Source: an uncultured Acidobacteriaceae bacterium (GTDB lineage: Bacteria > Acidobacteriota > Terriglobia > Terriglobales > Acidobacteriaceae). Taken from it: 64,000 nucleotides of DNA. Positions 1,888 to 60,895 of this stretch are shown piece by piece (the stretch's first letter is position 1; the number at the start of each line of letters is the position of its first letter). The notes beneath the pieces were generated by a model. The model was not told the DNA's origin, made no database searches, and saw nothing but the letters and a program-made list of their open reading frames with translations. The stretch spans positions 944,410-1,008,409 of the forward strand of contig CAWICF010000002.1 in assembly GCA_963834565.1 (NCBI GenBank), read 5' to 3'. A program made the position numbers and the translations under genes.

Positions 1888-3270
1888 TCACTGCCCCGGC
1901 TGCAGGTGCATCTTCAGGAACTGCACGTAAATGTCCCAGTCGCTCGGAACCATGCCGTGCCCGCCGTCGTGCATGTAGTAGGAAAGATCGTGAAAGATCG
2001 GCGTCTTCGCTGCCGGCCACACATCGGTATCCAGCGGATCTTTGCCGAGCAGCTTGTACACCGGCCCCGCCGCTACCTCTGCCAGAAACTCGCCCTTCGG
2101 ATCGGACCAGTAATCTGTGTTCCCCGTCTGCAGCAGCAGCGGCCGCGGCGCAATCAACGCCACCAGCAGATTCGCATCCATTGGTGCCTTGTCCGGGAAT
2201 CCCGCCCAGTGCCCATAGTTCGCCGCGAATTGATATGGAAAGCGTGTCGGCGCCGTCAGGTGCGCAATGGTTTCACCGTAATCGCGATGGCTCAGCGCGG
2301 CGCCGCCCTCGCCCGAGCAGCTCGCAATCATTGCCGCAAATCGTTGATCGTGCGCACCTGCCCACATCACCGTCTTGCCGAGCCGCGAAACGCCATGGAT
2401 CGCCACTCGTTTCGCGTCGATCGCCGGGTCCGTCTCGAAGTAATCCTGGACGCGGCTCATTCCCCACGCCCATGCGGCAATCGATCCCCAATCATCAGGC
2501 GGACGGTCCGGCAGTCCGGGCTTCAAGTAATGCGCACGGATTCCATTCCAAAAGCCGTTCAGATAATCCGGATCGACGTCGCCGTAGTAATAAGTCGCTA
2601 CACCAAATCCGGCATCGAGCAGCGGCTCCACATCGAGCCTCCCGAACCCGCGACCTTTTGGCGGCATCACCTTGGTATTCGTCTTCGGGTCCCAGACTTC
2701 TTCCGGCGTAATCCCCGGATCCTCAACCGAGTTTTGAATTGCGCCAAAGTTGATCGAAAAAAACATCGGCACCGGCTTGTGCGCATTCGCCGGCAGGTAG
2801 ATCAGCAGATGAATCTTCGGCCACGCCGGATCCTTCGAAAACGAAATCGTCACCTGTTTGCGAATCGCCTTTCCATCCAGCGCGGGCGTTCCCTTGTCCG
2901 TCACGTCGAAGCTCTCGTCCGCCGGCCGTCCCGGATCGCGTCCGTATTGCTGCGTCTCAAAAATCTCTTCGATCTCCGGCCGCCGTTTCGTCCACCACGT
3001 CTTTGCGTTCTTCACCGGTTTTCCGTCGTTCAATACCAGCGGGTCCACCAGCGTGTACGTCCCCACTTTCGCCTCGTCGTAGTTCACCGGAATCCCCGCC
3101 ACGACCGACGGCGGAGTTTGCATGGCGCGCATCGCCGAAGCCGGAAGTCCCGGCACCGTCGTCGGCGGCGGAGTGGGCGGCGCGGTCGGTGCCTGGGCCC
3201 GGTGCGTTTGCACCCCCAAAAGCAGCGAAACAAACACACAGGGAACGATGAAAGCAGGCCTGAATTGCAT
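1888..3270 (-). CDS. Secreted CE15-like glucuronoyl/acetylxylan esterase (alpha/beta hydrolase)
   Basis: Signal peptide MQFRPAF...AQA. Motifs WAWGMSRVQDY, HGVSRLGK (CE15 G-x-S-R-x-GK), CSGEGGAAL, LIAPRPLL, GGHG. Confidence 0.8.
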   Translation of the reverse strand: MQFRPAFIVPCVFVSLLLGVQTHRAQAPTAPPTPPPTTVPGLPASAMRAMQTPPSVVAGIPVNYDEAKVGTYTLVDPLVLNDGKPVKNAKTWWTKRRPEIEEIFETQQYGRDPGRPADESFDVTDKGTPALDGKAIRKQVTISFSKDPAWPKIHLLIYLPANAHKPVPMFFSINFGAIQNSVEDPGITPEEVWDPKTNTKVMPPKGRGFGRLDVEPLLDAGFGVATYYYGDVDPDYLNGFWNGIRAHYLKPGLPDRPPDDWGSIAAWAWGMSRVQDYFETDPAIDAKRVAIHGVSRLGKTVMWAGAHDQRFAAMIASCSGEGGAALSHRDYGETIAHLTAPTRFPYQFAANYGHWAGFPDKAPMDANLLVALIAPRPLLLQTGNTDYWSDPKGEFLAEVAAGPVYKLLGKDPLDTDVWPAAKTPIFHDLSYYMHDGGHGMVPSDWDIYVQFLKMHLQPGQ

Positions 3271-4245
3271 TGGAATCCCTCCAGGGGAGCATCTTTCAAA
3301 CACGATTTGCTAATGGAAATAAGTTGCCGACTGAAAAGCTAGTTTTCCGCCCATGCCGCTGTCAAGCTTTTGGGCAGCTCAGCCATCTTCGACCGCGAAA
3401 GTTGACTCCAGTATTCGAATTCTTCAGTTCTCTCAGGCCAATCCAGCAACTCAGCCACTGCTGCGAATCCGCGGGCCGCCCCGCTCAAACGCCTTTTCGA
3501 CCCTCGATCTCCGCCCGGCCAACTTCCTGGAACCCGCCTTATCACTCTCGCCCTAACAGAATCTGCACAGATTCGCTCCATTCGTGCACCCAACACGCAA
3601 TTCCACTTGCCAGGTGCCCTTTCTCCCAGGACCATTCTCGCTGCGCGCCGATTCACGCAACTTTCTGTCGGTTTTCACCTCGCCGAATGGACCGCAAATT
3701 GACGTCGCATTTTCTTCGTGCCATTTGAGCACCGCTGGAGCTATACTCTGTTCACTTTCTGAGTGGATTCGCGGCCCGCATTCGTGCGGTTACTTATTGG
3801 CGACACTCGTACTCCTATGACTCGTATAGGAACTTTGTAGAGTAAGAACGCAAATCAAAGCAGCTTCTCCTCAACCGGATCCCCCACTGGTTAAATAGCT
3901 GCAATACAACAATCAGTACCTTGGCTAATGCTCGATCTGAGGCTTTTTTCATTGCGCCGTCGTCTCTCATGCAGCGATTCCGGTATTACTCTTCTGGCCG
4001 TTCTTTGCAGGCCAAGCTTGACGTTCAGAAGACCCGTAATGCCGGCGTCGCAACTTCCCTCAAGCCCCCGTGTTACAAGGGGCATGATGTGGAGCGATTG
4101 ATCGGAACCCGGTGCTACGGCAGCCACAATAATGTTGGTTTGGGTTCAGGTTGAATAAGCCATGCGGCGGAAGTTTTTGGGGCCGCGTTTACGCGCGTGG
4201 CAATTGGAGGATCGCCCAAGTTCACCTGTTTCACCTGGAGCGCTT

Positions 4246-6675
4246 ATGAAAGCGTACTTCGTCGGTTCGTGTGTGCCTTTGTGTGTGTTGGTATGTGCCC
4301 TTGCTGGGTCCGTGGCATCGGCTGAAACGCAGCGCGCACTTCTCATCGGCATTAACACCTATCAACCCGCAGGCACAACCGCTGAACACCCCGCCGGCTG
4401 CATCTACGGCCGCTGCGAGCTCGGCTCCTTCCAGAATCTCGACGGCTCTGTGAACGACGCACAGGCTATGGCCGATCTGCTTACCAGTCCCAAGTTTGGT
4501 TTTCCCGCCACCAACGTCGTTCTGCTCACCAATCCCGCGGCTCCTCAGCCGCGTCCCGGCATCACGGTATTGCCCGCCGATCAAACCACGCACGACGGCA
4601 TCCTGGCGGCGATGCAGAAGTATCTCGTCGATCTCCCGCAGAAGGGCGACTCTGTGGTTTTCTACGACGCGAGTCATGGTTCACTGCGCGTGAACAGCAA
4701 AGGCAACAAGCTCACGGTGCTCGTCAACGGAAAATACGTCCACGCCGACAGCACGCTGGTTCCTTCCGACGCGTACAAAGGCGGCTACGACGTGCGTGAC
4801 CGCGAAATGACGCGCATCTTCAACGCCGCTCTCAATAAGGGTATTCATCTCACCGTCATCTTCGATAGTTGTCACTCCGGCGGAATCAGCCGCGGCATCG
4901 GCCCGGTCTATCGCGAGCGCGCGCTCGCCTTCGATCCGCGCGACATCGACGAAGCGCCTGATGCGCTGCCCAATGGTCAGCCTGCGCCCGCGCCGACCGA
5001 TCGCTCCGACAATCCAGCTCTCGTTTTCTCCGCCGCCCAGCAGGATCAAACAGCAAAAGAAATGCCGGTCAGCGACAAAGCAACTGACCCGCACGGCGCC
5101 TTTACCGCCGCACTTCTTGAGGCGCTGCAGACGCTGCCCGCCGACACTCCTGCTGAGCTCGTCTACCAACGAGTTAAGGCTGTCCTCGAAGGTGGCAGCG
5201 TCCCCGACCAGGAGCCCGATCTTGACGCGTCTGCCGCGCGCCGCCAGCAACCACTCTTCGGTGGATCCGCTGCAGGCTCAAGCAAGATTCGCACCGCCGC
5301 TCTTGGCACAGACGATGACGGTAGTGTGACTCTCGACATTGGTAAGGTCTCCGGAGTAGGCGTCGGCACGGAGTTCACTGGAATGACTGCGAACTCCGCC
5401 GGCCAGAAAGTGGTCCTTCGCATAACCGATCTCAACGGTATCGCCCGCTCCTCAGCCCAGGTCGTCAGCCCCACCGGAGCAAAGGTCGCGGCAGGCGATG
5501 TCTTCGAACTCACCAAGTGGGTCCCGGCAGACAATCCTCCGTTGAGCATCTGGCTTTGGCCCTCCAACCTATCTGAGAGCGACATCCTCGCGGCAGCAGC
5601 ACAAGTGCAGGCATCCGGTGCCACGCTCGTCTCCGATCCTGCTGAACAGCAATGGACGCACGTCATCAATTGGGATGGTTCGCACTGGACGCTGCAGCAG
5701 GCAGGCGCATCCACGTCCGTCAATCTCGGTGCAACGCTCTCCGCCCAGGCAATTAAGCAGAGCCTTCCCGCTGGCGCAAAGCTCTGGGTAAATCTTCCGG
5801 CATCGACGGAGCTTGCCACCAAGCTCACTCCTGCCGGATCAGATAGTGCCGTCCAGCACGCTGACAGCCTGACGAACGCCATGTACGCGCTCACCGGCGT
5901 TGTCACGGCAAATGGACCTGCCTATGCGTGGTACCACAAGAGCGAGCTCGCCGCCGGCCCGCCTTCGCCGAATGCTCCTGCGCACAGCCCGGGCTGCTCC
6001 GCAACCTCGCAGTACCCGGTGCGCTCTGATTGGGTGCCCGTCGCGAGCCCCGACGCCATCGATGCCGGAAGCACCAAGCTCAACAACTATTCGTCTCTGC
6101 TCGCCAAGGTGCACGGCTGGCTGGAACTCGCCAACAGTCCGGCCGACGCATCAACTGACGACTACTTCTCCCTAGGGTTGATTCCTTCCACCGGCACAGA
6201 TGTCGTCGACACTGCTCAGCCCGTCCATCAGGGAGATTCACTCAAGATGGCTCTTCAGTCCAGCTCGCGCGTCATTGAGCGCCGCTGGGTCTACGTGCTC
6301 GATATTGACTGCCACGGTCAGGGAACGGTACTGTATCCCCACAACTACGCTGAAAACCAGTTTCCAAACGATGCCGATAGCGGGCGCCAGTTTATTCTTC
6401 CCGGCGCTCCCACTTTACGTATCGGCCCGCCGTACGGAGTTGACACATTAATTCTGCTCAGCACTGCGCAGCCGTTGCCCGATCCGTACGCACTGAATTT
6501 TGAAGGCGTAGCTTCACGCGGAACGCGCGGCGTGGCTTCGCCCTTGGAGAAGTTGCTGAACCAGGCCAGTGGTGGCACCCGCGGATTTTCGGGCGAAGTG
6601 CCAACCAACTGGGGTATCGGGCTCATGACCGTTCACAGCGAACCCAAGCAGGCTGCTGCGAACGGGAGCAATTGA
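4246..6675 (+). CDS. Secreted caspase-like peptidase C14 with C-terminal DUF4384-like domain
   Basis: GGAG RBS then ATG at 4246; signal peptide. RALLIGIN, catalytic ASHG and DSCHSG, FSAAQQDQTAKE, HGAFTAALL. C-terminal YVLDIDCHGQGTVLYP...GPPYGVDTLILLST resembles DUF4384. Confidence 0.85.
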   Translation: MKAYFVGSCVPLCVLVCALAGSVASAETQRALLIGINTYQPAGTTAEHPAGCIYGRCELGSFQNLDGSVNDAQAMADLLTSPKFGFPATNVVLLTNPAAPQPRPGITVLPADQTTHDGILAAMQKYLVDLPQKGDSVVFYDASHGSLRVNSKGNKLTVLVNGKYVHADSTLVPSDAYKGGYDVRDREMTRIFNAALNKGIHLTVIFDSCHSGGISRGIGPVYRERALAFDPRDIDEAPDALPNGQPAPAPTDRSDNPALVFSAAQQDQTAKEMPVSDKATDPHGAFTAALLEALQTLPADTPAELVYQRVKAVLEGGSVPDQEPDLDASAARRQQPLFGGSAAGSSKIRTAALGTDDDGSVTLDIGKVSGVGVGTEFTGMTANSAGQKVVLRITDLNGIARSSAQVVSPTGAKVAAGDVFELTKWVPADNPPLSIWLWPSNLSESDILAAAAQVQASGATLVSDPAEQQWTHVINWDGSHWTLQQAGASTSVNLGATLSAQAIKQSLPAGAKLWVNLPASTELATKLTPAGSDSAVQHADSLTNAMYALTGVVTANGPAYAWYHKSELAAGPPSPNAPAHSPGCSATSQYPVRSDWVPVASPDAIDAGSTKLNNYSSLLAKVHGWLELANSPADASTDDYFSLGLIPSTGTDVVDTAQPVHQGDSLKMALQSSSRVIERRWVYVLDIDCHGQGTVLYPHNYAENQFPNDADSGRQFILPGAPTLRIGPPYGVDTLILLSTAQPLPDPYALNFEGVASRGTRGVASPLEKLLNQASGGTRGFSGEVPTNWGIGLMTVHSEPKQAAANGSN

Positions 6676-6763
6676 ATTTGCGCCATCATCATTCGGCTTT
6701 ATGAATTTCGTGAGCAGCCGGCGGCTCAATGAAAATACTCCGGCAAAGGATGGGGGTAGAAAG

Positions 6764-7978
6764 ATGGCAACTTCAAGACGCGATTTCCTTGCCGATGCAT
6801 CTGTCGTCGGCATGCTGGCTGCAATGCTTCCCGGATTGGCGGCTGCTCAGGATTCAGCGGTGGCTCACACTTCGACCAGCAACGCCGAAGCGGACGACGC
6901 GCCGCACGACTCCTTCGGTTTCTGGAACGGATTCTTCGATTCAGTGAACCCATATGCTGCGGACTACGGAAACAAGGCCGCAACACGCGGACCCGCAGAC
7001 CAGCTTCCAGATCCCCAGGCACAGACGCAGTACCTGCACTACGACTCTGACAACAAGCGCCTCCGCTATGCGTCGGACATTAAGAAAGAAGAACTGCTCG
7101 ACCATGACGGCGACGTCGGTGTCAGCATAGCGATTGCCCAATTTCGCCCAGGATCAGGGGAAAACAATCTCAAGGCGTCGCAACTGCGCATCGACACGAC
7201 ACAGGTTCACCCGTTCGTGGACATTATTACTCCGCTCGCCTGGTCGGCCATTGCATCCATCAACCCGAGCAAGATGGGTACGGTTTCCCTTGACCAACTC
7301 GGGTTCAAGTCACCGCAGGCAATGCAGGGCACAAGCAAGATCCTGCTCACTCGGGGAACGGGAAAGCTGGCTGTTAATGTATCCAGAGCCCAGGCCGAAT
7401 CGATGTTCATGAAGGCTCTCAACATCATGCTCCAGGGCGCCAAGATCGCGGCACCGATACTTACCCTTCCGGCCATCAGTGTGCCCGCGCTGAGCACATT
7501 TACTGAGATGATGAGCTACTGGGAAGATCGCACCCGGTTCGTCATGTCGGGTAATCTGACCACCGCAGTCGCTACCCAGCAGGCCTTAAACGATCCGGAT
7601 CGGGAACCCACGTATATGGGCCTGCTCTCCGGCGACTACCTCATGGTTCCGCAGAAACATGTGGATGAGCTTGCCAAGGCGCTGCCAAATCTCGATCTCA
7701 TGCAGGGCTACCTGGTGGCCAAGGATGCCGACCCGAACCTGCCCCTTGCGCAAAGGGCGCAGAGTTCGGTTCCCGGTATCACGTATGCGTCGATGCACGT
7801 CACGGTAGCGCCCTCGAATACCGATCTGAGCAAGCCGCCGATTTGGGCTAACTCAAGCTCCGGTAGCAGCAGCTCCAGCTCGTCTTCCAGCTCGAAGAAG
7901 AGCAGCTCCAGCAGTTCGAGTGGATCGAAGAGCGGATCGACTAGTTCGGGTAGTACTGGCAGCTCGAAGAGCCAGTAG
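6764..7978 (+). CDS. Tat-exported hypothetical protein with Ser-rich C-terminal tail
   Basis: Twin-arginine leader SRRDFL...AAA. The last ~42 aa are almost all Ser/Gly/Lys/Thr. Confidence 0.75.
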   Translation: MATSRRDFLADASVVGMLAAMLPGLAAAQDSAVAHTSTSNAEADDAPHDSFGFWNGFFDSVNPYAADYGNKAATRGPADQLPDPQAQTQYLHYDSDNKRLRYASDIKKEELLDHDGDVGVSIAIAQFRPGSGENNLKASQLRIDTTQVHPFVDIITPLAWSAIASINPSKMGTVSLDQLGFKSPQAMQGTSKILLTRGTGKLAVNVSRAQAESMFMKALNIMLQGAKIAAPILTLPAISVPALSTFTEMMSYWEDRTRFVMSGNLTTAVATQQALNDPDREPTYMGLLSGDYLMVPQKHVDELAKALPNLDLMQGYLVAKDADPNLPLAQRAQSSVPGITYASMHVTVAPSNTDLSKPPIWANSSSGSSSSSSSSSSKKSSSSSSSGSKSGSTSSGSTGSSKSQ

Positions 7979-8086
7979 TTAAGCGTGCGTAAATTGTGCG
8001 ACGGCAGCCCGTCTCTACGGGTATGCTGGGTGCAACGCAGCCGGGGGGTGCCGGCGGCGTTGCCGAACGGTCAGTCGGGGGTCAAT

Positions 8087-9586
8087 ATGAGCCGTGCTTT
8101 CTTATCAAGGGTGATCCTTTGCCTGAGTGCAGGGGCGCTTGCCGCGTTACCCGCCCGGGCGCAAAGCTTCGGGGCCGCGAAGGATAAGGTCACTCTCCAC
8201 CGCAAACTTCCTGCTCTCATCCACCTCCCCGGCAGCAGCATCAAGGTTGTCGTTCCGGGACAGGGTATGGTGGGTGACGTGTCGTACGATCTGCAGGCGC
8301 TGCTTGAAACGGAGATTCTCAAGGACGATCCGGACCTGCGCGTGGAGCCCAATAATCCTGACACAATTCTCACCTGCAACATCACGGGCTTCTACCATCC
8401 AGCGCCCACGATAACCACAGAGCCGGGGCTTGCTCTTACCAAGAATGGTCCGAACACGCAGCAATTAGAGCGGATCACGGGTAGCCTTAGCGTTGCCTTC
8501 CAGGCCAAATCGGCCACTGGCCGCACCTTGATCTCCGACAACGTCACTTCAAAGTACGACGAGCAGTTTGATAGTTCAGGAGTCTCCACCTCCCACGGCG
8601 TCATGGGGTCGCTCAGCGGTACCTGGGGCAAGTTGAAAGGCCAAAAGACCGAAGAAAACACTCCTCCCACCGATGCCGAGTTGCGTTCCAGGCTGCTGCT
8701 CGATGTGGTGCAGCAGATCGCCGAGCATATTGTGAATACGAATGAGGCGATCGACGTCTTTCTGGCCAAGGAAAAAGGCCCGATCGAGGAAGGCGACAAG
8801 CAAGCGGACGGTGAACTCTGGGAACGTGCTCTTGAAACCTTCGAGACTGCGCAGCCGTCCGGCAAGCCGGAAGAGGATGCATACCGCCTTTACAACATCG
8901 GCGTAGCGTATGAGGCGCTTGCCTACCAGGCAGACGACCCCAAGATGGCAATGAAGTACCTTGACCAGGCGGCCATCAACTACGGCAAGGCGATCGATGC
9001 AAAGCCCAGCGAAAAGTACTTTGTGAATCCGCAAGAGCGCATTGAAACGGCAATTGCGCACTACAAAGTCTTTGAAGAAGAGAAGAAGCCGCCGCCCGCG
9101 CCGGTCGAATCTGCCAGCACTGAGCCAGTCGGCCCGACAGCGACCAGAGGGCTCTCGAACAACCTGGTGATTAGCATGGTGAAGGCCGGAATGGACGACA
9201 ACACCGTCATACAGGCCATCCACGCAGCCAAGGCGGTCACTTTCGATCTCACCCCTGGGGGCGAGCAGCAGCTAACCAGTAATGGCGTAAGCGCCCGCGT
9301 CCTGGCGGCAATGAAGACGCAGGCGGCGACAAACTCTCAAGCGCCCTCCTCGCCCAGAGGACTCACCAATAACCAAGTAATTGCCATGATCAAGTCTGGC
9401 ATGGACGACGACACGGTAGTGACGGCCATCCGCGCTACCAAGGTGGTCGACTTCGATCTCACGCCGACGGGCCAGCAACAGCTTACCGGCAGCGGCGTCA
9501 GCAAGCTCGTATTGACTGCGATGAAGACTCGCGCTGCCAGAAAACCGGCCGCGGCAGGAACTGTAAAACAGGCGGCATCGCAATGA
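8087..9586 (+). CDS. Secreted TPR-containing protein with two tandem ~57-aa C-terminal repeats
   Basis: Signal peptide ending ARA-Q. TPR-like YRLYNIGVAYEALA...AAINYGKAIDAKP. Duplicated GL(S/T)NN..I.M.K.GMDD.TV..AI...FDLTP.G.QQL...GVS..VL.AMK. Confidence 0.75.
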   Translation: MSRAFLSRVILCLSAGALAALPARAQSFGAAKDKVTLHRKLPALIHLPGSSIKVVVPGQGMVGDVSYDLQALLETEILKDDPDLRVEPNNPDTILTCNITGFYHPAPTITTEPGLALTKNGPNTQQLERITGSLSVAFQAKSATGRTLISDNVTSKYDEQFDSSGVSTSHGVMGSLSGTWGKLKGQKTEENTPPTDAELRSRLLLDVVQQIAEHIVNTNEAIDVFLAKEKGPIEEGDKQADGELWERALETFETAQPSGKPEEDAYRLYNIGVAYEALAYQADDPKMAMKYLDQAAINYGKAIDAKPSEKYFVNPQERIETAIAHYKVFEEEKKPPPAPVESASTEPVGPTATRGLSNNLVISMVKAGMDDNTVIQAIHAAKAVTFDLTPGGEQQLTSNGVSARVLAAMKTQAATNSQAPSSPRGLTNNQVIAMIKSGMDDDTVVTAIRATKVVDFDLTPTGQQQLTGSGVSKLVLTAMKTRAARKPAAAGTVKQAASQ

Positions 9587-56020: not shown

Positions 56021-56171
56021 AGCCATCCTCAGGCCTTCCAAGGTCGGGAGAGTTCGCCACCAGCGTCGTTAGCACGCCGGCTCGCCGACTTGCCGCTTTC
56101 TAACTCAGCCAACTCCGCTAGCCCGCTTCCCTATCGATTTCCACACCCACTTTTCGCTAACATATTTGTCG

Positions 56172-56399
56172 ATGCCTTTCCCGATCCGCACCTGCGTGGT
56201 CTGCCAGGAGGAGTTTGAACTCCGCCCCGATAAGCCGGGTTTCGCCAATCGCTGCCCATCCTGCAGCGAACCCGAATCCGCCGATTCCGACAACGGCGAG
56301 CGCCGTCCCTTCGATCCCACCGAGCGCCGCGTCGAGATGGAAGTGAACGCCGCCCGCCGCCGCGCCATCCGCGACTTGCTCTACCGCAAAGACAGCTAA
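56172..56399 (+). CDS. Small putative Zn-finger protein
   Basis: CVVC ... CPSC pair followed by a charged helix. Confidence 0.7.
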   Translation: MPFPIRTCVVCQEEFELRPDKPGFANRCPSCSEPESADSDNGERRPFDPTERRVEMEVNAARRRAIRDLLYRKDS

Positions 56400-56448: not shown

Positions 56449-56479
56449 TTGACCCGTCACGGTTCCCCTGTGCTATGGT
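56449..56479 (+). promoter_or_regulatory. Putative sigma70 promoter for the IK-repeat gene
   Basis: TTGACC at 56449 and extended -10 TG-c-TATGGT at 56471-56479; GGGAG RBS before the ATG at 56521. Confidence 0.45.
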
Positions 56480-56520
56480 TTTTCCCGAGGTTTCCCAGCT
56501 CAAATAACCGGGAGTCTACG

Positions 56521-56991
56521 ATGGAAAAGAAGCAGCTTCCTCCCTCCCTCGACGAAGCTCTGGCCCAGGTCGATCCCGAGCGACGCCGCCTGCTCGGCAT
56601 GTTGCTTGCCGGAGCCGCCGCCCTGCCCCTCATCTCCACCACCTCGCTCGCCCAGGACAAAACTAAGGACAAATCGGCCATCAAACATGGTCCGTTGGAT
56701 GACAAGGCGAGCTCCACGCAGATCAAGAGCAATTCGAACATCAAAGCGGACTCGCAGATCAAGAGCGACAACAACATCAAGTACTCGCCGCAAACTATCA
56801 AGCTCACAAATGCCGACAAAAGTTCCTCCATTAAAAGCGATTACGTCAAAAGCGGATCATCGGCAAACATCAGGAGCTCGAACACGGCAATTAAGAGCGA
56901 CTACGTCAAAGGCGGCTCGTCGATCAAGGCGTCTTCGTCGACAATCAAAAGCTCGGCTCCAGCGCAGCAGAAAACCAAACCTAATCAGTAA
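56521..56991 (+). CDS. Tat-like leader + repetitive [IV]K core protein (candidate RiPP-like precursor)
   Basis: 156 aa; leader ...DPERRRLLGMLLAGAAALPLISTTSLA-Q; core with 10 IK, 2 VK and 1 IR; IKSDYVK occurs twice. Confidence 0.8.
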   Translation: MEKKQLPPSLDEALAQVDPERRRLLGMLLAGAAALPLISTTSLAQDKTKDKSAIKHGPLDDKASSTQIKSNSNIKADSQIKSDNNIKYSPQTIKLTNADKSSSIKSDYVKSGSSANIRSSNTAIKSDYVKGGSSIKASSSTIKSSAPAQQKTKPNQ

Positions 56992-57000
56992 CGAATCGCG

Positions 57001-58165
57001 TTGAGCAACCCGCACGTCAATCCCGCCATTCGCTTCTTCGCGGACGATGCGGGCTACTTGGCCTACAACTCGGGGTCCGATTGCTTGCACCAGCTCAATG
57101 CCGTCGCTTCGCTGATCTTTGAGCTCTGCGATGGATCGCGCACCATAGACGAGATCCAAGCGCTCGTTTTGCCCGCACTCCCGTTCGGCCATCACGTCGA
57201 GATCGACCGGTTTCTGGCTGACTCTCGCCTCCGGCCTTCTTATTCCGGCAAGCGCGAGCCCAACTGCTCCGCGGGAATTCACCGCTGAAGAGCTCTCGGC
57301 CCTCGTCGAACACCTGTGCGAAACCGGCCAGCCCGATGCCGCTCTGCGCTGCGCGAAAAAACTCACGCAAGTCGCCGGCGCGGATCCTGCCGCCTGGCAC
57401 ACGCTCGGCCGCATCGCCCGGCTCGCCGGCCTACGTCCGCTCGCAGCCGATGCCTACGAGAGATACCTCGCCGCATGTCCTGAAGACGCGCCCATCGAGC
57501 ACCTGCTCGTCGCCCTTCGCGATGAGCCTCCGCCGCCGCGCGCCTCTGACGACTGCGTCCGCCTTACGTTCGCCGACTTCGCATCGCACTACGACACGAA
57601 AATGCGCGACAATCTCGGCTACCAGGCGCCTGAGCGCCTTGCGGAATTCATCCGCGCCGAACTCTGCAATTCATCCGCACTCTCCATCCTCGACATCGGG
57701 TGCGGCACCGGACTCGCCGGAGTCGCGCTCAAAGTCCGAGCCGCTCATCTCCTGGGTATCGACCTTTCGCCCGAAATGATCGAGCACGCCCGTGCTCGCG
57801 GCGTCTACGATTCACTCGAAGTCGCCGAAATCACCAATTGGCTCGCCAACTCGCACGATCTCTTCGACCTGATCGTTGCCTGCGATTGTCTCGTCTACTT
57901 CGGCGACTTGACTTCGCTCGTTCAACTCGCCGCTGCGCGCCTCAAGCCCGGCGGCCATTTCGCCTTCACGGTTGAGTGCGGCGACCTTTACCCGTTCAAA
58001 CTCACTGACTCAGGGCGCTTCACGCATCATCGCGACCACATCTGTTCCGCCGCCGCACAATCTGGCCTGCAGCTCACACGCCTTGAAGCCGGTTTTCTGC
58101 GCACCGAGGCCGGACTCGACGTCACCGGCCTCTTCGCGCTCCTGCGCAAACCTTTCGACCCCTGA
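57001..58165 (+). pseudogene. PqqD/RRE-TPR-class I SAM methyltransferase fusion interrupted by a frameshift at ~57222-57226
   Basis: Frame 1: PqqD-like (LHQLNAVASLIFELCDGSRTIDEI...EIDRFLADS). Frame 2 continues LASGLLIP, TPR (AAWHTLGRIARLAG...AYERYLAACPED), then PPRASDDCVRLTFADFASHYD and ILDIGCGTGLAG. Frame 2 has no ATG/GTG/TTG between the shift and 57602. Confidence 0.8.
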
Positions 58166-58237
58166 CAGTGTGTATGGTCTTGGCAAATCATGTTTCTCCG
58201 GACAACTCTTCCTTCCCCGTCCACGTCCCACAAACAT

Positions 58238-59323
58238 ATGCCTCATTTGAGACCCCGCCTCTTCGCCGCGGCCCTTGCCTGCATTGTCTGCCTCGTCGAG
58301 CCATCCGCCCACGCTGCTAGATCCCGTGCTCAGAGTCTTCTCTCTCCATGGGATCTGCATCCGGTCTCGCTCACCGATGCAAAATATGATTGCCCCACGG
58401 TCACCGCGCTCCCGCACGACATCGTCGCCTACGATTACTACTCAGATTCGAAGCACTCCATCATCGATCCCACGCGCTACGCCGCCTACCAGGCGGCCTC
58501 AAAACAATACGGCGGCGTTGAAGATGCCGCAGAGCGCGCCGCTGACAATTTCCAAAGCACGGGCAGCCGCGCCGCCGCTGCTTGCGCCGCGCGGATTCTC
58601 TTCGCGCAGGCGCAGGCCAACGCAATGGCCGGCAACATGTCCTCGAACCAGGCCTATTACGTGCAGAATTGGGCTGTGGGTGCTCTTGCCGTCGCATGGC
58701 TCAAAGTGCGTTCGGCCGACGCCTTGGGCCTCTCACCCGTGCAGACCGCCGCTCTCACCTCGTGGATGAAGACCGTCGCCGGCCAAGTTGAAGACTATTT
58801 CGACAAGCAGCACGAGAAGAACAGCGGTAGTGGCGTCAACAATCACTATTACTGGGCCGGATTCGCTGCGCTCGCCGCCGGCATCGCCGCCAACGACCGG
58901 AGCCTTTACGACTGGGGCATCAGCACGTACAAATTCGGCATCGACCAGATCGAGCCCGACGGCACGTTGCCACTTGAAATGGCTCGCGGCCAGCGCGCTC
59001 TTCACTATCACCTCTTCGCGCTTGCGCCGCTCGTGACGATGGCTGAGCTCGCCTCCGCTAACGGCGACGACCTTTACGCCTACGACAACTCCCGTCTCAA
59101 GCTTCTCGTCGACGTCAGCGTGGCTGGCCTCGCCGATAACCACTTCTTTGCCGAGAAATCCGGCGTAGCGCAGGACACGCCCAAGGACGGCCAAATCTCC
59201 GCCTCCGACATCTCCTGGATCCGCCCCTATGCGCGCCGATTCCCCTCACCCGCGATCGCCGCCGTGCTTTCCCACACCCCCATTGGCTCCGACCGTTACC
59301 TCGGCGGCCTGCCACCCTTGTAA
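58238..59323 (+). CDS. Alginate lyase (PL5-like), secreted
   Basis: NNHYYWAG (PL5 NNH-x-YW), DGTLPLEMARGQRALHYHLFAL; signal peptide. Confidence 0.85.
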   Translation: MPHLRPRLFAAALACIVCLVEPSAHAARSRAQSLLSPWDLHPVSLTDAKYDCPTVTALPHDIVAYDYYSDSKHSIIDPTRYAAYQAASKQYGGVEDAAERAADNFQSTGSRAAAACAARILFAQAQANAMAGNMSSNQAYYVQNWAVGALAVAWLKVRSADALGLSPVQTAALTSWMKTVAGQVEDYFDKQHEKNSGSGVNNHYYWAGFAALAAGIAANDRSLYDWGISTYKFGIDQIEPDGTLPLEMARGQRALHYHLFALAPLVTMAELASANGDDLYAYDNSRLKLLVDVSVAGLADNHFFAEKSGVAQDTPKDGQISASDISWIRPYARRFPSPAIAAVLSHTPIGSDRYLGGLPPL

Positions 59324-59359: not shown

Positions 59360-60895
59360 GTGAGTAAAGTTTCCCCGCCCGCGGCACCCGTAGTGGGCTT
59401 CGTCTCCCTCGGCTGCCCCAAAAACCTCGTCGATTCTGAGGTCATGATGGGCCTTCTCGATCGCGCCGGCGCGCGTCTCACCTCCCATCCCGAAGAGGCC
59501 GAAATCCTCGTCGTCAACACCTGCTCCTTCATCGACACAGCCAAGCAGGAATCAGTCGACACCATTCTCGAGATGGCCCGCCACAAGACCGAGGGCCGCG
59601 CACGCAAGCTTATCGTCGCCGGCTGCCTCGTCGAGCGCTATCGCGACGAGATTCAGAAAAACATCCCTGAAGTCGACGCCGTGGTCGGCACCGGCGAGCT
59701 CGAAGCCATCCTCGATGCCGCCGGCATTGCTCCTTCACTTGCCGCCGCGCCTTCGCCGTTCAACATCATTACCAGCACTGCCGCTGACATACGATCAGGC
59801 CGCGAATCCGGCGCCGGAACGCACAAGTCTGCCTTGCAGGCCGTCACGTCCAGACAAGAGGGCGACCATCGCGAGCGCCAGGGCCGATTCCGCCGCGACG
59901 ACTGGGCGGGCGCATCGCACCTGCTGCCTACCTACCTCTACGACGAAACCACCCCGCGCATGCTATCGACGCCGCGCGCCTCGGCTTACATCAAAATCGC
60001 CGAGGGCTGCGACCACCCTTGCAGCTTCTGTGTCATTCCCAACCTGAGGGGCAAATTCCGCTCGCGCAGATTTGAATCGGTCGTCGCTGAAGCGCAACAG
60101 CTCGTTGCCCGCGGCGTGCAGGAGATCACGCTCATCGGTCAGGACACCACCTGCTACGGCGAAGATCTGGGCCTGAAGGATGGGTTGGCAACTCTGCTCG
60201 ATTCAATCGCCAGGATCGACGGCCTGCGCTGGCTGCGCTTCCTCTACGCCTACCCCAACCGCGTCACTGGACGCCTGCTCGAGACCATCGCCAAACACGA
60301 TAACATTTGCAAGTATCTCGATCTCCCGCTGCAACACGCTTCGCCCGACGTCCTGAAGCGCATGAAGCGCGGGGCCGGCGCCGACATTTTCCTGAAGACC
60401 CTCGAAAAAGTCCGCGCTGCTGTCCCCGGCATCGCGCTCCGCACCTCGTTCATCGTCGGCTTCCCCGGCGAGTCGCTTCGCGACTTTGAACTTTTGGAGC
60501 AATTCATCGGCGAGGCCAGGTTCGACTGGCTCGGCGTCTTCAACTATTCCGACGAAGAGGGCTCCGGAGCATTCTCGCTCGACGCGAAAATTCCGAGGCG
60601 CACCATCGAGTCGCGCCGCAAGCGCCTTATGCGCCTGCAGCAGTCCATCTCGCGTCGTGCCAAGAAAAACTGGGTAGGCCGTGAAGTTGCTGTTCTCGCC
60701 GAAGGCGAAAGCGCCGAGACGCCGCTGCTTTGGGAAGGCCGCACCGAGTTCCACGCGCCCGAAATCGACGGCAAGGTCTATATCAACGACTTCGGATCTC
60801 TGGAAAATCTGGAAGCCGGCCAGTTCTACCGCGCCCAGATCACCGAGGCCCACGACTACGACCTCGTCGCCCGCGTCGTCTCCTCGAAACTCTGA
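59360..60895 (+). CDS. rimO: Ribosomal protein S12 methylthiotransferase
   Basis: SLGCPKNLVDSE, VNTCSFI, AGCLVERY, IAEGCDHPCSFC (CX3CX2C), YAYP, APEIDG TRAM domain. Confidence 0.96.
   Translation: MSKVSPPAAPVVGFVSLGCPKNLVDSEVMMGLLDRAGARLTSHPEEAEILVVNTCSFIDTAKQESVDTILEMARHKTEGRARKLIVAGCLVERYRDEIQKNIPEVDAVVGTGELEAILDAAGIAPSLAAAPSPFNIITSTAADIRSGRESGAGTHKSALQAVTSRQEGDHRERQGRFRRDDWAGASHLLPTYLYDETTPRMLSTPRASAYIKIAEGCDHPCSFCVIPNLRGKFRSRRFESVVAEAQQLVARGVQEITLIGQDTTCYGEDLGLKDGLATLLDSIARIDGLRWLRFLYAYPNRVTGRLLETIAKHDNICKYLDLPLQHASPDVLKRMKRGAGADIFLKTLEKVRAAVPGIALRTSFIVGFPGESLRDFELLEQFIGEARFDWLGVFNYSDEEGSGAFSLDAKIPRRTIESRRKRLMRLQQSISRRAKKNWVGREVAVLAEGESAETPLLWEGRTEFHAPEIDGKVYINDFGSLENLEAGQFYRAQITEAHDYDLVARVVSSKL

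Follow-up and report, generated by a model that had tools for sequence, protein, structure and literature searches.

A candidate leader-guided two-gene module in an Acidobacteriaceae genome, pairing a Tat-signal precursor with an RRE-TPR-methyltransferase

A 64,000-nt stretch of contig CAWICF010000002.1 (assembly GCA_963834565.1, positions 944,410 to 1,008,409), hereafter the window, comes from an uncultured soil or bog Acidobacteriaceae bacterium and carries, between its positions 56,521 and 58,165, a short gene with a repetitive product followed closely by a gene for a three-domain protein. This arrangement raises the question of whether the two genes encode a substrate and its dedicated modifying enzyme. 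The original prediction had read them as a system akin to those making RiPPs (peptides synthesized on the ribosome and then modified post-translationally), in which a PqqD-like RiPP recognition element (RRE), fused to tetratricopeptide repeats (TPR) and a methyltransferase, would present the precursor for iterative methylation of its repeated lysines. Fold prediction and comparison across phyla upheld part of this interpretation, namely the RRE fold and the pairing of a leader-core precursor with the enzyme, whereas leader binding, methylation with its placement on lysine, and Tat export with cleavage are what we infer. With a probability of roughly 60%, the pair represents a leader-guided two-gene module in which the RRE would bind a twin-arginine translocation (Tat) leader, the methyltransferase would modify the core, likely at lysine, and the Tat pathway would export the product.

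The shorter gene has the following elements in the window:
56521-56991, + strand: precursor (substrate) gene encoding 156 aa, from the open reading frame (ORF) list and its translation
56510-56514, + strand: Shine-Dalgarno-like GGGAG, 6 nt ahead of the ATG, read from the sequence
56521-56652, + strand: leader, aa 1-44, also a predicted Tat signal peptide, from the family leader alignment, Pfam and the NCBI names of relatives
56548-56574, + strand: conserved n-region LDEALAQVD, within the leader
56581-56598, + strand: twin-arginine motif RRRLLG, within the leader, followed by the h-region and the predicted cleavage site SLA|Q
56653-56988, + strand: core, aa 45-156, Ser/Asn/Asp-rich, with ~16% Lys and 13 [IV][KR] units

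The 156-aa ORF is as first described, with a leader and a repeat core. Residues 1-44 read MEKKQLPPSLDEALAQVDPERRRLLGMLLAGAAALPLISTTSLA, with the predicted cut before Q, and a hidden Markov model (HMM) of the family leader, searched against the 64-kb window, matched this precursor solely (E 3.3e-20). The 13 [IV][KR] dipeptides are spaced 5-14 aa apart and IKSDYVK occurs twice; composition-preserving shuffles of the core contained 2.3 such dipeptides on average and 9 at most, and 13 were reached in 0 of 200,000. The gene had been credited with its own promoter and ribosome-binding site: the latter stands (GGGAG), whereas a sigma-70 consensus scan upstream of the gene revealed no promoter, the TTGACC...TATGGT pair at 56449-56479 having a spacer of 19 nt, outside the 16-18 nt accepted by the scan. 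The idea that the core is divided into several short products found no support. The enzyme gene follows after an intergenic gap of 9 nt (56992-57000).

This second gene opens at TTG 57001 and is split over two frames by a 2-nt deletion, considered further below:
57001-57222, + strand: frame 1, RRE/PqqD-fold domain, aa 1-74, from the TTG start through strands 1-3, helices 1-2 and the first half of helix 3
57224-57283, + strand: frame 2, remainder of RRE helix 3, then one short strand and a linker (LASGLLIPASASPTAPREF), from the homologue alignment and AlphaFold2 (AF2)
57284-57517, + strand: frame 2, TPR region of five helices and ~2.5 repeats, aa 96-173 of the restored protein, from Pfam TPR_14, PDB TPR matches and AF2
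57548-58165, + strand: frame 2, class I S-adenosylmethionine (SAM) methyltransferase, aa 184-388 and stop, from Pfam Methyltransf_23/25/12/11 (E 1e-13 to 1e-15)
57692-57712, + strand: SAM motif DIGCGTG, within the methyltransferase domain

Frame 1 is PqqD-like up to D74/S75 and frame 2 ends with the stop at 58163-58165, in agreement with the earlier description of a PqqD-like domain joined over a frameshift to TPR and a class I SAM methyltransferase directly downstream of the precursor. Intact homologues of ~388 aa are common, and the three domains are fused in every full-length one and strongly conserved throughout (86 sequences). The frame-restored window protein scores 22.6 bits against the Pfam PqqD model PF05402 (cut-off 23.4 bits) and its close homologue P0001 23.5 bits; among 19 N-terminal domains tested (18 database homologues and one related locus), all matched this model at E <= 0.1, with a best E of 3.8e-7, and the best PDB sequence match of the domain was TfuB1 (E 0.022). 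An AF2 model of P0001 (intact, 86% identical to the window protein; 86 homologues) reached a predicted local distance difference test (pLDDT) score of 92.4 and a predicted template modelling score (pTM) of 0.86, with N-terminal strands at 10-15, 18-23 and 28-32 and helices at 34-42, 49-59 and 65-78. The whole-protein Foldseek search returned methyltransferases only and was uninformative on this domain. The domain-only model (pLDDT 88) was led against the PDB by the RREs of the lasso peptide proteins TfuB1 (6jx3, best match, template modelling (TM) score 0.74/0.78, root-mean-square deviation (rmsd) 2.3 A) and TbiB1 (5v1u/5v1v), with TM scores of 0.69-0.78, both of which were solved with bound leader peptides. 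The next matches were the PbtF RRE, PqqD, CteB, TruD, ThcOx, LynD, MccB, SuiB and NisB, and nearly all of the top 20 were RRE domains. The check named in the original prediction, a PqqD fold at the N-terminus, thus gave the expected answer, and the modelled domain, a winged helix-turn-helix of three strands and three helices, is a PqqD-fold RRE.

Downstream, PDB TPR profiles matched positions 95-170, in line with the AF2 helices H96-H173. The catalytic domain shows the class I Rossmann-fold features, DIGCGTG followed by GIDLS with an invariant Asp, exceeds the cut-offs of several Pfam Methyltransf models and matches solved methyltransferases in Foldseek at E ~1e-10. Its closest solved relatives by sequence profile are METTL27 (E 4e-15), the best match but of unknown substrate, and phosphoethanolamine N-methyltransferase (PEAMT, E 1.5e-10), along with ToxA, MitM and NodS; its structural relatives are NodS (26% identity, rmsd 3.3), ToxA, ChlM, MitM, UbiG, NTM1 and the bacterial, PmtA-type phosphatidylethanolamine N-methyltransferase (23% identity). 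Where the substrate of such a relative is known, the enzyme is in most cases an N-methyltransferase, and several of these use amines.

Pfam and NCBIfam hold no specific family for either the precursor or the enzyme, every NCBIfam match of the latter falling far below its cut-off, and GC-rich DNA can give rise to low-complexity ORFs by chance. Both facts would suit an adjacency without meaning, in which an ordinary Tat-exported low-complexity protein lies beside an unrelated methyltransferase, or in which the small ORF is not a gene at all. A genome scan bears directly on this point. It yielded 38 loci with a full-length, RRE-containing homologue of the enzyme and 42 loci whose methyltransferase match is without the RRE region. 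The former belong to Acidobacteriaceae/Terracidiphilus and other Acidobacteriota, Micropepsaceae/Rhizomicrobium and other Alphaproteobacteria, Bryobacterales, Vicinamibacterales, Planctomycetota, Desulfovibrionaceae, Pseudomonadales and Ilumatobacteraceae, and nearly all have a small ORF whose end lies 40-200 nt upstream of the enzyme. When the leader HMM was run on all stop-to-stop ORFs of both strands at all loci, it matched a single ORF per locus, on the same strand and directly upstream of the enzyme, in 35 of the 38 full-length loci, and none at the 42 loci without the RRE region. For 34 of these 35 loci the E values lay between 1e-11 and 1e-24; L039, whose precursor is frameshifted, gave 7e-4. 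One of the loci without a leader ORF (L014) lies on a contig that ends 68 nt upstream of the enzyme. In the reverse direction, the database precursor P0214 has the enzyme 107 nt downstream. The occurrence of conserved-leader, variable and mostly repeat-rich ORFs beside homologous enzymes, another check named in the original prediction, was therefore found at 35/38 against 0/42 loci. All-against-all clustering of the flanking ORFs identified no other gene conserved with the pair across phyla, so that the pair, and the pair alone, is kept over at least five phyla. A profile search of a protein library of 1.84 billion representatives gave 164 precursor clusters at 50% identity, all of 40-303 aa. 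In the family leader alignment, the leader is constrained, and the core varies. A chance adjacency is already contradicted by these comparative sequence data, and we regard it as very improbable.

The leader itself says more about how the pair may work. Its consensus across phyla is [LI]-[DE]-x-x-L-x-x-[VI]-[DSN]-x-x-R-R-x-F-L-K; a hydrophobic stretch rich in Ala and Gly comes next, then P-L-M-T-S and A-x-A-[QE], with L14, R21 and R22 invariant in the alignment. Where the family consensus has RRGFLK, the window leader has RRRLLG, then MLLAGAAALPLISTTSLA|Q. The Pfam TAT_signal model matches 8/22 family leaders (best E 8e-4), the window leader itself falling below its detection, and the Rieske Tat-anchor model TM_PetC matches 7/22; NCBI/PGAP names relatives 'twin-arginine translocation signal domain-containing protein'. 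The leader is thus a complete, predicted twin-arginine signal peptide, and since it is one, export and cleavage are probably carried out by the general Tat pathway and signal peptidase. The n-region ahead of the two arginines is conserved far beyond the needs of Tat export, which suggests that it is being read as a recognition sequence.

A full Tat signal as the recognised element would also fit a substrate-specific Tat-signal chaperone, in which the RRE-TPR part mainly serves as signal binder and the methyltransferase, whose catalytic domain resembles small-molecule methyltransferases, acts on a small molecule or on another protein. Tat proofreading chaperones of this kind (TorD, DmsD, NapD) are cytoplasmic and bind the signal peptides of dedicated substrates. 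Like them, the RRE-TPR-methyltransferase is cytoplasmic and dedicated to one Tat substrate, which it would be expected to bind before export; however, TorD is all-helical and NapD ferredoxin-like, whereas here an RRE fold, known only from peptide-modification pathways, is fused to a catalytic domain. Fusion of all three domains, conserved throughout the full-length homologues, and a cargo that is a low-complexity peptide without cofactor and in need of no folding check further argue against a chaperone, and we consider this explanation improbable.

In contrast to the leaders, the cores are hypervariable. IK/LK/VK repeats prevail in Acidobacteriaceae; GKGKGK cores, some mixed with GRGRG, occur in Bryobacterales, Planctomycetes, Vicinamibacterales and Pseudomonadales; KKKKKKKK cores between acidic residues in Alphaproteobacteria; and Rhizomicrobium-type cores have a two-Cys loop followed by KKK. 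The one common trait is lysine, which accounts for 14-57% of the residues in all 32 locus cores whose RR motif is recognisable and is abundant in 116/118 database precursors, the two exceptions resembling out-of-frame poly-K. Minimal cores consist of A, E, G and K only (P0176) or of D, G, K, N, P and Q only (L031), so that Lys is the only side chain common to all. This richness is nearly but not strictly universal, the latter being ruled out by Acidobacteriaceae proteins in which a family leader is joined to a small folded CHB_HEX_C_1/Fn3_assoc domain with 2-8% Lys:
L088/L089 4001-4453 and 4762-5925, and L087: CHB_HEX_C_1/Fn3_assoc leader proteins with few Lys, one of them directly upstream of a PqqD-TPR-methyltransferase, and three such genes in tandem at another locus
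One protein of this type (P0352) is one of three tandem paralogues.

These low-lysine partners, one of which adjoins an enzyme gene, are among the reasons to weigh a genuine enzyme-substrate pair with another target: Glu/Asp carboxylates (giving esters), amides of the backbone or of Gln/Asn, or a position adjoining the leader, the lysines then serving the function of the exported product instead of marking modification sites. The acidic blocks beside many poly-K cores, e.g. EGEGEEG-K8-EGE, and the presence of the O-methyltransferases ChlM and UbiG among the structural neighbours of the catalytic domain would be in keeping with this. However, no acidic or amide residue is universal, the cores of L031 and L036 lacking Glu and P0176 being confined to its four residue types, whereas every intact core contains Lys; moreover, N-methyltransferases predominate among the best sequence and structure matches whose substrates are known. 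A target other than lysine is therefore unlikely, though a more serious contender than a chaperone.

Under the preferred interpretation, leader-guided modification of the core, the RRE, possibly helped by the TPR, would bind the leader of the unexported precursor in the cytoplasm, for which the strict association of leader ORFs with RRE-containing enzymes gives indirect support. The tethered methyltransferase would then methylate the core repeatedly, most probably at the epsilon-amines of Lys and perhaps at Arg in GRGRG-type cores. The general Tat pathway would export the modified product and signal peptidase would cut the leader after SLA|Q. Use of these two housekeeping systems would account for the absence of a conserved, dedicated protease or transporter beside the pair.

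Several observations weigh against this interpretation. The target atom of class I methyltransferases is not assignable from sequence, and ChlM and UbiG score about as high as the N-methyltransferases. The hydrophobic i, i+4, i+7 spacing of the n-region suggests a helix, whereas solved RRE complexes bind their leaders as beta-strands, so that the TPR rather than the RRE may read that motif. At two loci with a full-length enzyme (L033, L034), no precursor was found within 5-6 kb, and the precursor P0143, which lies on a short contig of 4.6 kb, is an orphan. A leader-bearing CHB_HEX_C_1 protein with a core of ~5% Lys (P0292) lies directly upstream of a 387-aa PqqD-TPR-methyltransferase. The RNA evidence consists of fragmentary, low-depth metatranscriptome contigs that may include DNA. 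Finally, the enzyme gene of the window is frameshifted, and the first ATG, GTG or TTG of its downstream frame, at 57602, falls inside the methyltransferase domain.

The break lies at one dinucleotide:
57222-57226, + strand: CTCTC, where 2 nt (CT) of the intact CTCTCTC are deleted, shifting the frame inside RRE helix 3
Over the break, P0001 and P0002, which are intact, close homologues of 388 aa with 84-86% identity, read DRFLADSLASGLLIPA; they carry DRFLADSLASGLL where the window is without one CT, and their protein reads ADSLASG. Public metagenome runs contain both forms. The deletion allele, identical to the window, is present in runs X1, X3 and X6, which belong to three studies, and the intact allele, equivalent to the window with CT put in behind 57221, in runs X11, X12, X14, X19 and X20, the last being an RNA library. 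Contigs with the intact allele differ from the window by at most 2 single-nucleotide polymorphisms (SNPs) in 1.9 kb (99.9% identity), and sample X20 contains both alleles. Since both alleles recur in independent contigs, a sequencing or assembly error is ruled out, the deletion being found in assemblies of three studies and the restored allele in five runs. A programmed frameshift is likewise ruled out by the natural intact alleles of these five runs, and there is no slippery motif. As the break falls in RRE helix 3 and no downstream start precedes 57602, the enzyme, and with it the module, is probably inactive in the window strain, sister strains being intact.

For this strain alone, it is rather likely that the two genes are a decaying pseudogene pair without present function, as the split helix 3, the fixation of the deletion in the contigs of three studies and the late start codon indicate. 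Against decay stand the intact precursor ORF, the remainder of the enzyme gene, which bears no further lesion, and the co-occurrence of both alleles in one sample. The near-identity to intact alleles implies that the loss is very recent or else reversible by slippage in the short CT run. The metatranscriptome contigs cover parts of both genes at a depth no higher than that of the flanking genes, and expression is thus not established.

Three side observations concern this site and its counterparts elsewhere. The (CT)2 versus (CT)3 length polymorphism at 57222-57226 toggles the enzyme gene between broken and intact. Run X19 carries the intact allele without the SNP at 57301 that goes with it in the other runs, which may reflect either slippage that recurs or a mixture of strains. 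Three further metagenome-assembled genomes (L020, L030 and L039) likewise have a split or truncated enzyme ORF, perhaps through assembly error or perhaps through natural inactivation, and in L039 the precursor is frameshifted too.

In comparison with known systems, the RRE shares its fold with the lasso B1/PqqD-family RREs (TfuB1, TbiB1, PqqD) and, like them, is encoded beside a short precursor whose leader is conserved and whose core varies. It differs in being fused to a TPR and a class I methyltransferase as the sole conserved enzyme, in the absence of a lasso cyclase, protease, radical SAM or YcaO partner, and in having a complete Tat signal peptide as leader, whereas the leaders of those systems are dedicated and removed by a pathway protease. 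Neither a PqqA peptide nor a PqqE radical SAM enzyme accompanies the module, as would be expected of pyrroloquinoline quinone (PQQ) biosynthesis (PqqA-E). The earlier statement that the operon contains no radical SAM or YcaO enzyme holds: the only radical SAM gene nearby, at 59360-60895, encodes a RimO/MiaB-type methylthiotransferase (UPF0004 + Radical_SAM + TRAM) and is conserved with the pair only in the Terracidiphilus locus L025, the sole one syntenic with the window, for which reason it was rejected as a part of the system.

The bufferins are closest in logic. They are made by the MNIO enzyme BufB and the RRE-containing BufC from precursors with Sec signal peptides, and the signal peptide is dispensable for modification (PMC11626156). 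As proposed for the present module, a precursor with a general-secretion signal is modified in the cytoplasm with an RRE-type domain and left to housekeeping export and cleavage; by RiPP standards the precursors are long, and some can be folded proteins of small size (PMC11626156). Here, however, the signal would be of Tat instead of Sec type, the enzyme is a methyltransferase instead of an MNIO oxidase and the cores are Lys-rich instead of Cys-containing. The conservation of the n-region, which suggests that it is read, also contrasts with the dispensable signal peptide of the bufferins. No MNIO (DUF692) or DUF2063 domain was found in the pair or its conserved neighbours, so that the likeness is one of logic only.

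On the catalytic side, the closest relatives are METTL27 and the amine N-methyltransferases acting on phosphoethanolamine, on phosphatidylethanolamine or, like NodS, on other small molecules; some amine N-methyltransferases methylate one primary amine repeatedly. Their substrates are small molecules or lipids (that of METTL27 aside), and they have no RRE, TPR or partner peptide. Rickettsia PKMT1/2 and M. tuberculosis Rv2067c also combine a class I methyltransferase with a winged-helix accessory domain, but the similarity is weak: Pfam PKMT_2nd matches 6/19 of the N-terminal domains (best E 0.0026), and Rv2067c has a Foldseek TM score of ~0.6 at E 0.15. PKMT1/2 methylate many lysines of OmpB, an exported protein, and Rv2067c methylates histone H3K79; neither has leader-guided recognition or an adjacent substrate gene. 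Known RiPP methyltransferases, such as that of the daptides (NF041820), likewise methylate a ribosomal peptide with SAM, but this model gives the present enzyme 21 bits against a cut-off of 175. To our knowledge, they are accessory tailoring enzymes of larger clusters and act at termini or other residues.

The system accordingly does not belong to the lasso, PQQ, sactipeptide, YcaO or bufferin types and would rather be a variant of RRE-guided modification. A short precursor gene that adjoins its modifying enzyme and combines a conserved leader with a variable core is typical of RiPPs. At the same time, the CHB_HEX_C_1 partner beside the enzyme implies that the substrate is defined by its leader and not by low complexity, which places the system where RiPP biosynthesis meets leader-guided modification of proteins. 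It is as much a protein-modification system as a classical RiPP one, because its leader is a Tat signal with probable processing by general Tat and signal peptidase, and Tat export suits folded or pre-modified cargo.

A literature search on PqqD/RRE with methyltransferase, TPR, Tat signal, lysine methyltransferase and COG4976 retrieved no description of such a system, nor was a curated family for it found, in agreement with the original claim of a methyltransferase-only RRE system not recognised as described. Tentatively, and at somewhat less than even odds, the pair could stand for an unrecognised, widespread class in which a Tat signal doubles as leader, an enzyme-fused RRE reads it, Tat replaces the protease and exporter, and poly-(methyl-lysine) polycations of IK, GK or poly-K type are secreted. 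If this were so, RRE-guided modification would extend to a minimal two-gene system with a methyltransferase as sole enzyme and a Tat-signal leader, much as the bufferins extended it to Sec signals. The authors of RRE-Finder left 1,050 methyltransferase hits aside, presuming them to be false positives, and some of these may belong to the RRE-TPR-methyltransferase family. For polycationic peptides or proteins with heavy Lys methylation, no role is known in soil Acidobacteria, Alphaproteobacteria or Planctomycetes. The system is readily testable, since it has only two genes, the expected +14 Da ladder is predictable, and the enzyme occurs naturally in both intact and broken form.

Turning to the neighbouring genes, an alginate lyase gene (58190-59323, Pfam E 2e-43), whose N-terminus looks signal-peptide-like by eye, lies between the module and the RimO-type gene. 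It was rejected as a part of the system, not being conserved with the pair beyond close relatives, and it represents a lineage-specific insertion or loss, since it is missing even from the otherwise syntenic Terracidiphilus locus L025. The X20 metatranscriptome contig carries a 6-nt GCCGAC insertion in this gene, at window position 58714, an in-frame strain variant. Just upstream of the precursor gene, a 77-aa ORF (56166-56399) contains two zinc-ribbon-like CxxC pairs (CVVCQEEF…CPSC); it had no Pfam match, and the neighbour-gene comparison covered ORFs of >=90 aa.

Some variants of the family deserve mention. A two-Cys loop, GKC(D/P)EGLVV(S/N)KK(T/S/A)GKC(A/V)VPKKK, is found at three loci (L011, L015 and L035) and in the database precursors P0168, P0236, P0241, P0255 and P0256, and this core subtype suggests a disulfide-bridged, Lys-rich product. 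A Planctomicrobium precursor (L027 804-1202) has an EF-hand-like stretch (KFDKDGDNALNQKELAAAL) amid GKGKG blocks. In an alphaproteobacterial lineage (L081-L084), a second class I methyltransferase of ~263 aa is encoded directly upstream of the precursor (3079-3870), and a 1286-aa TPR/Glyco_transf_41 (OGT-like) gene lies convergent downstream (5446-8195). Finally, a weakly related leader subgroup (…RRxFLKxLxxGsAFAVPVVSSFSM; L093 1-2265 and L094) has a Thr-rich core, an HprK-related-kinase-like gene upstream and, 10 nt downstream, a gene for a GT2+TPR protein whose best NCBIfam match, far below cut-off, is a SunS-family peptide S-glycosyltransferase. This subgroup may be a parallel leader-guided glycosylation system, and the position of its leader directly upstream of a GT2-TPR glycosyltransferase, together with the Thr-rich core, suggests that the same logic may extend to other enzyme types.

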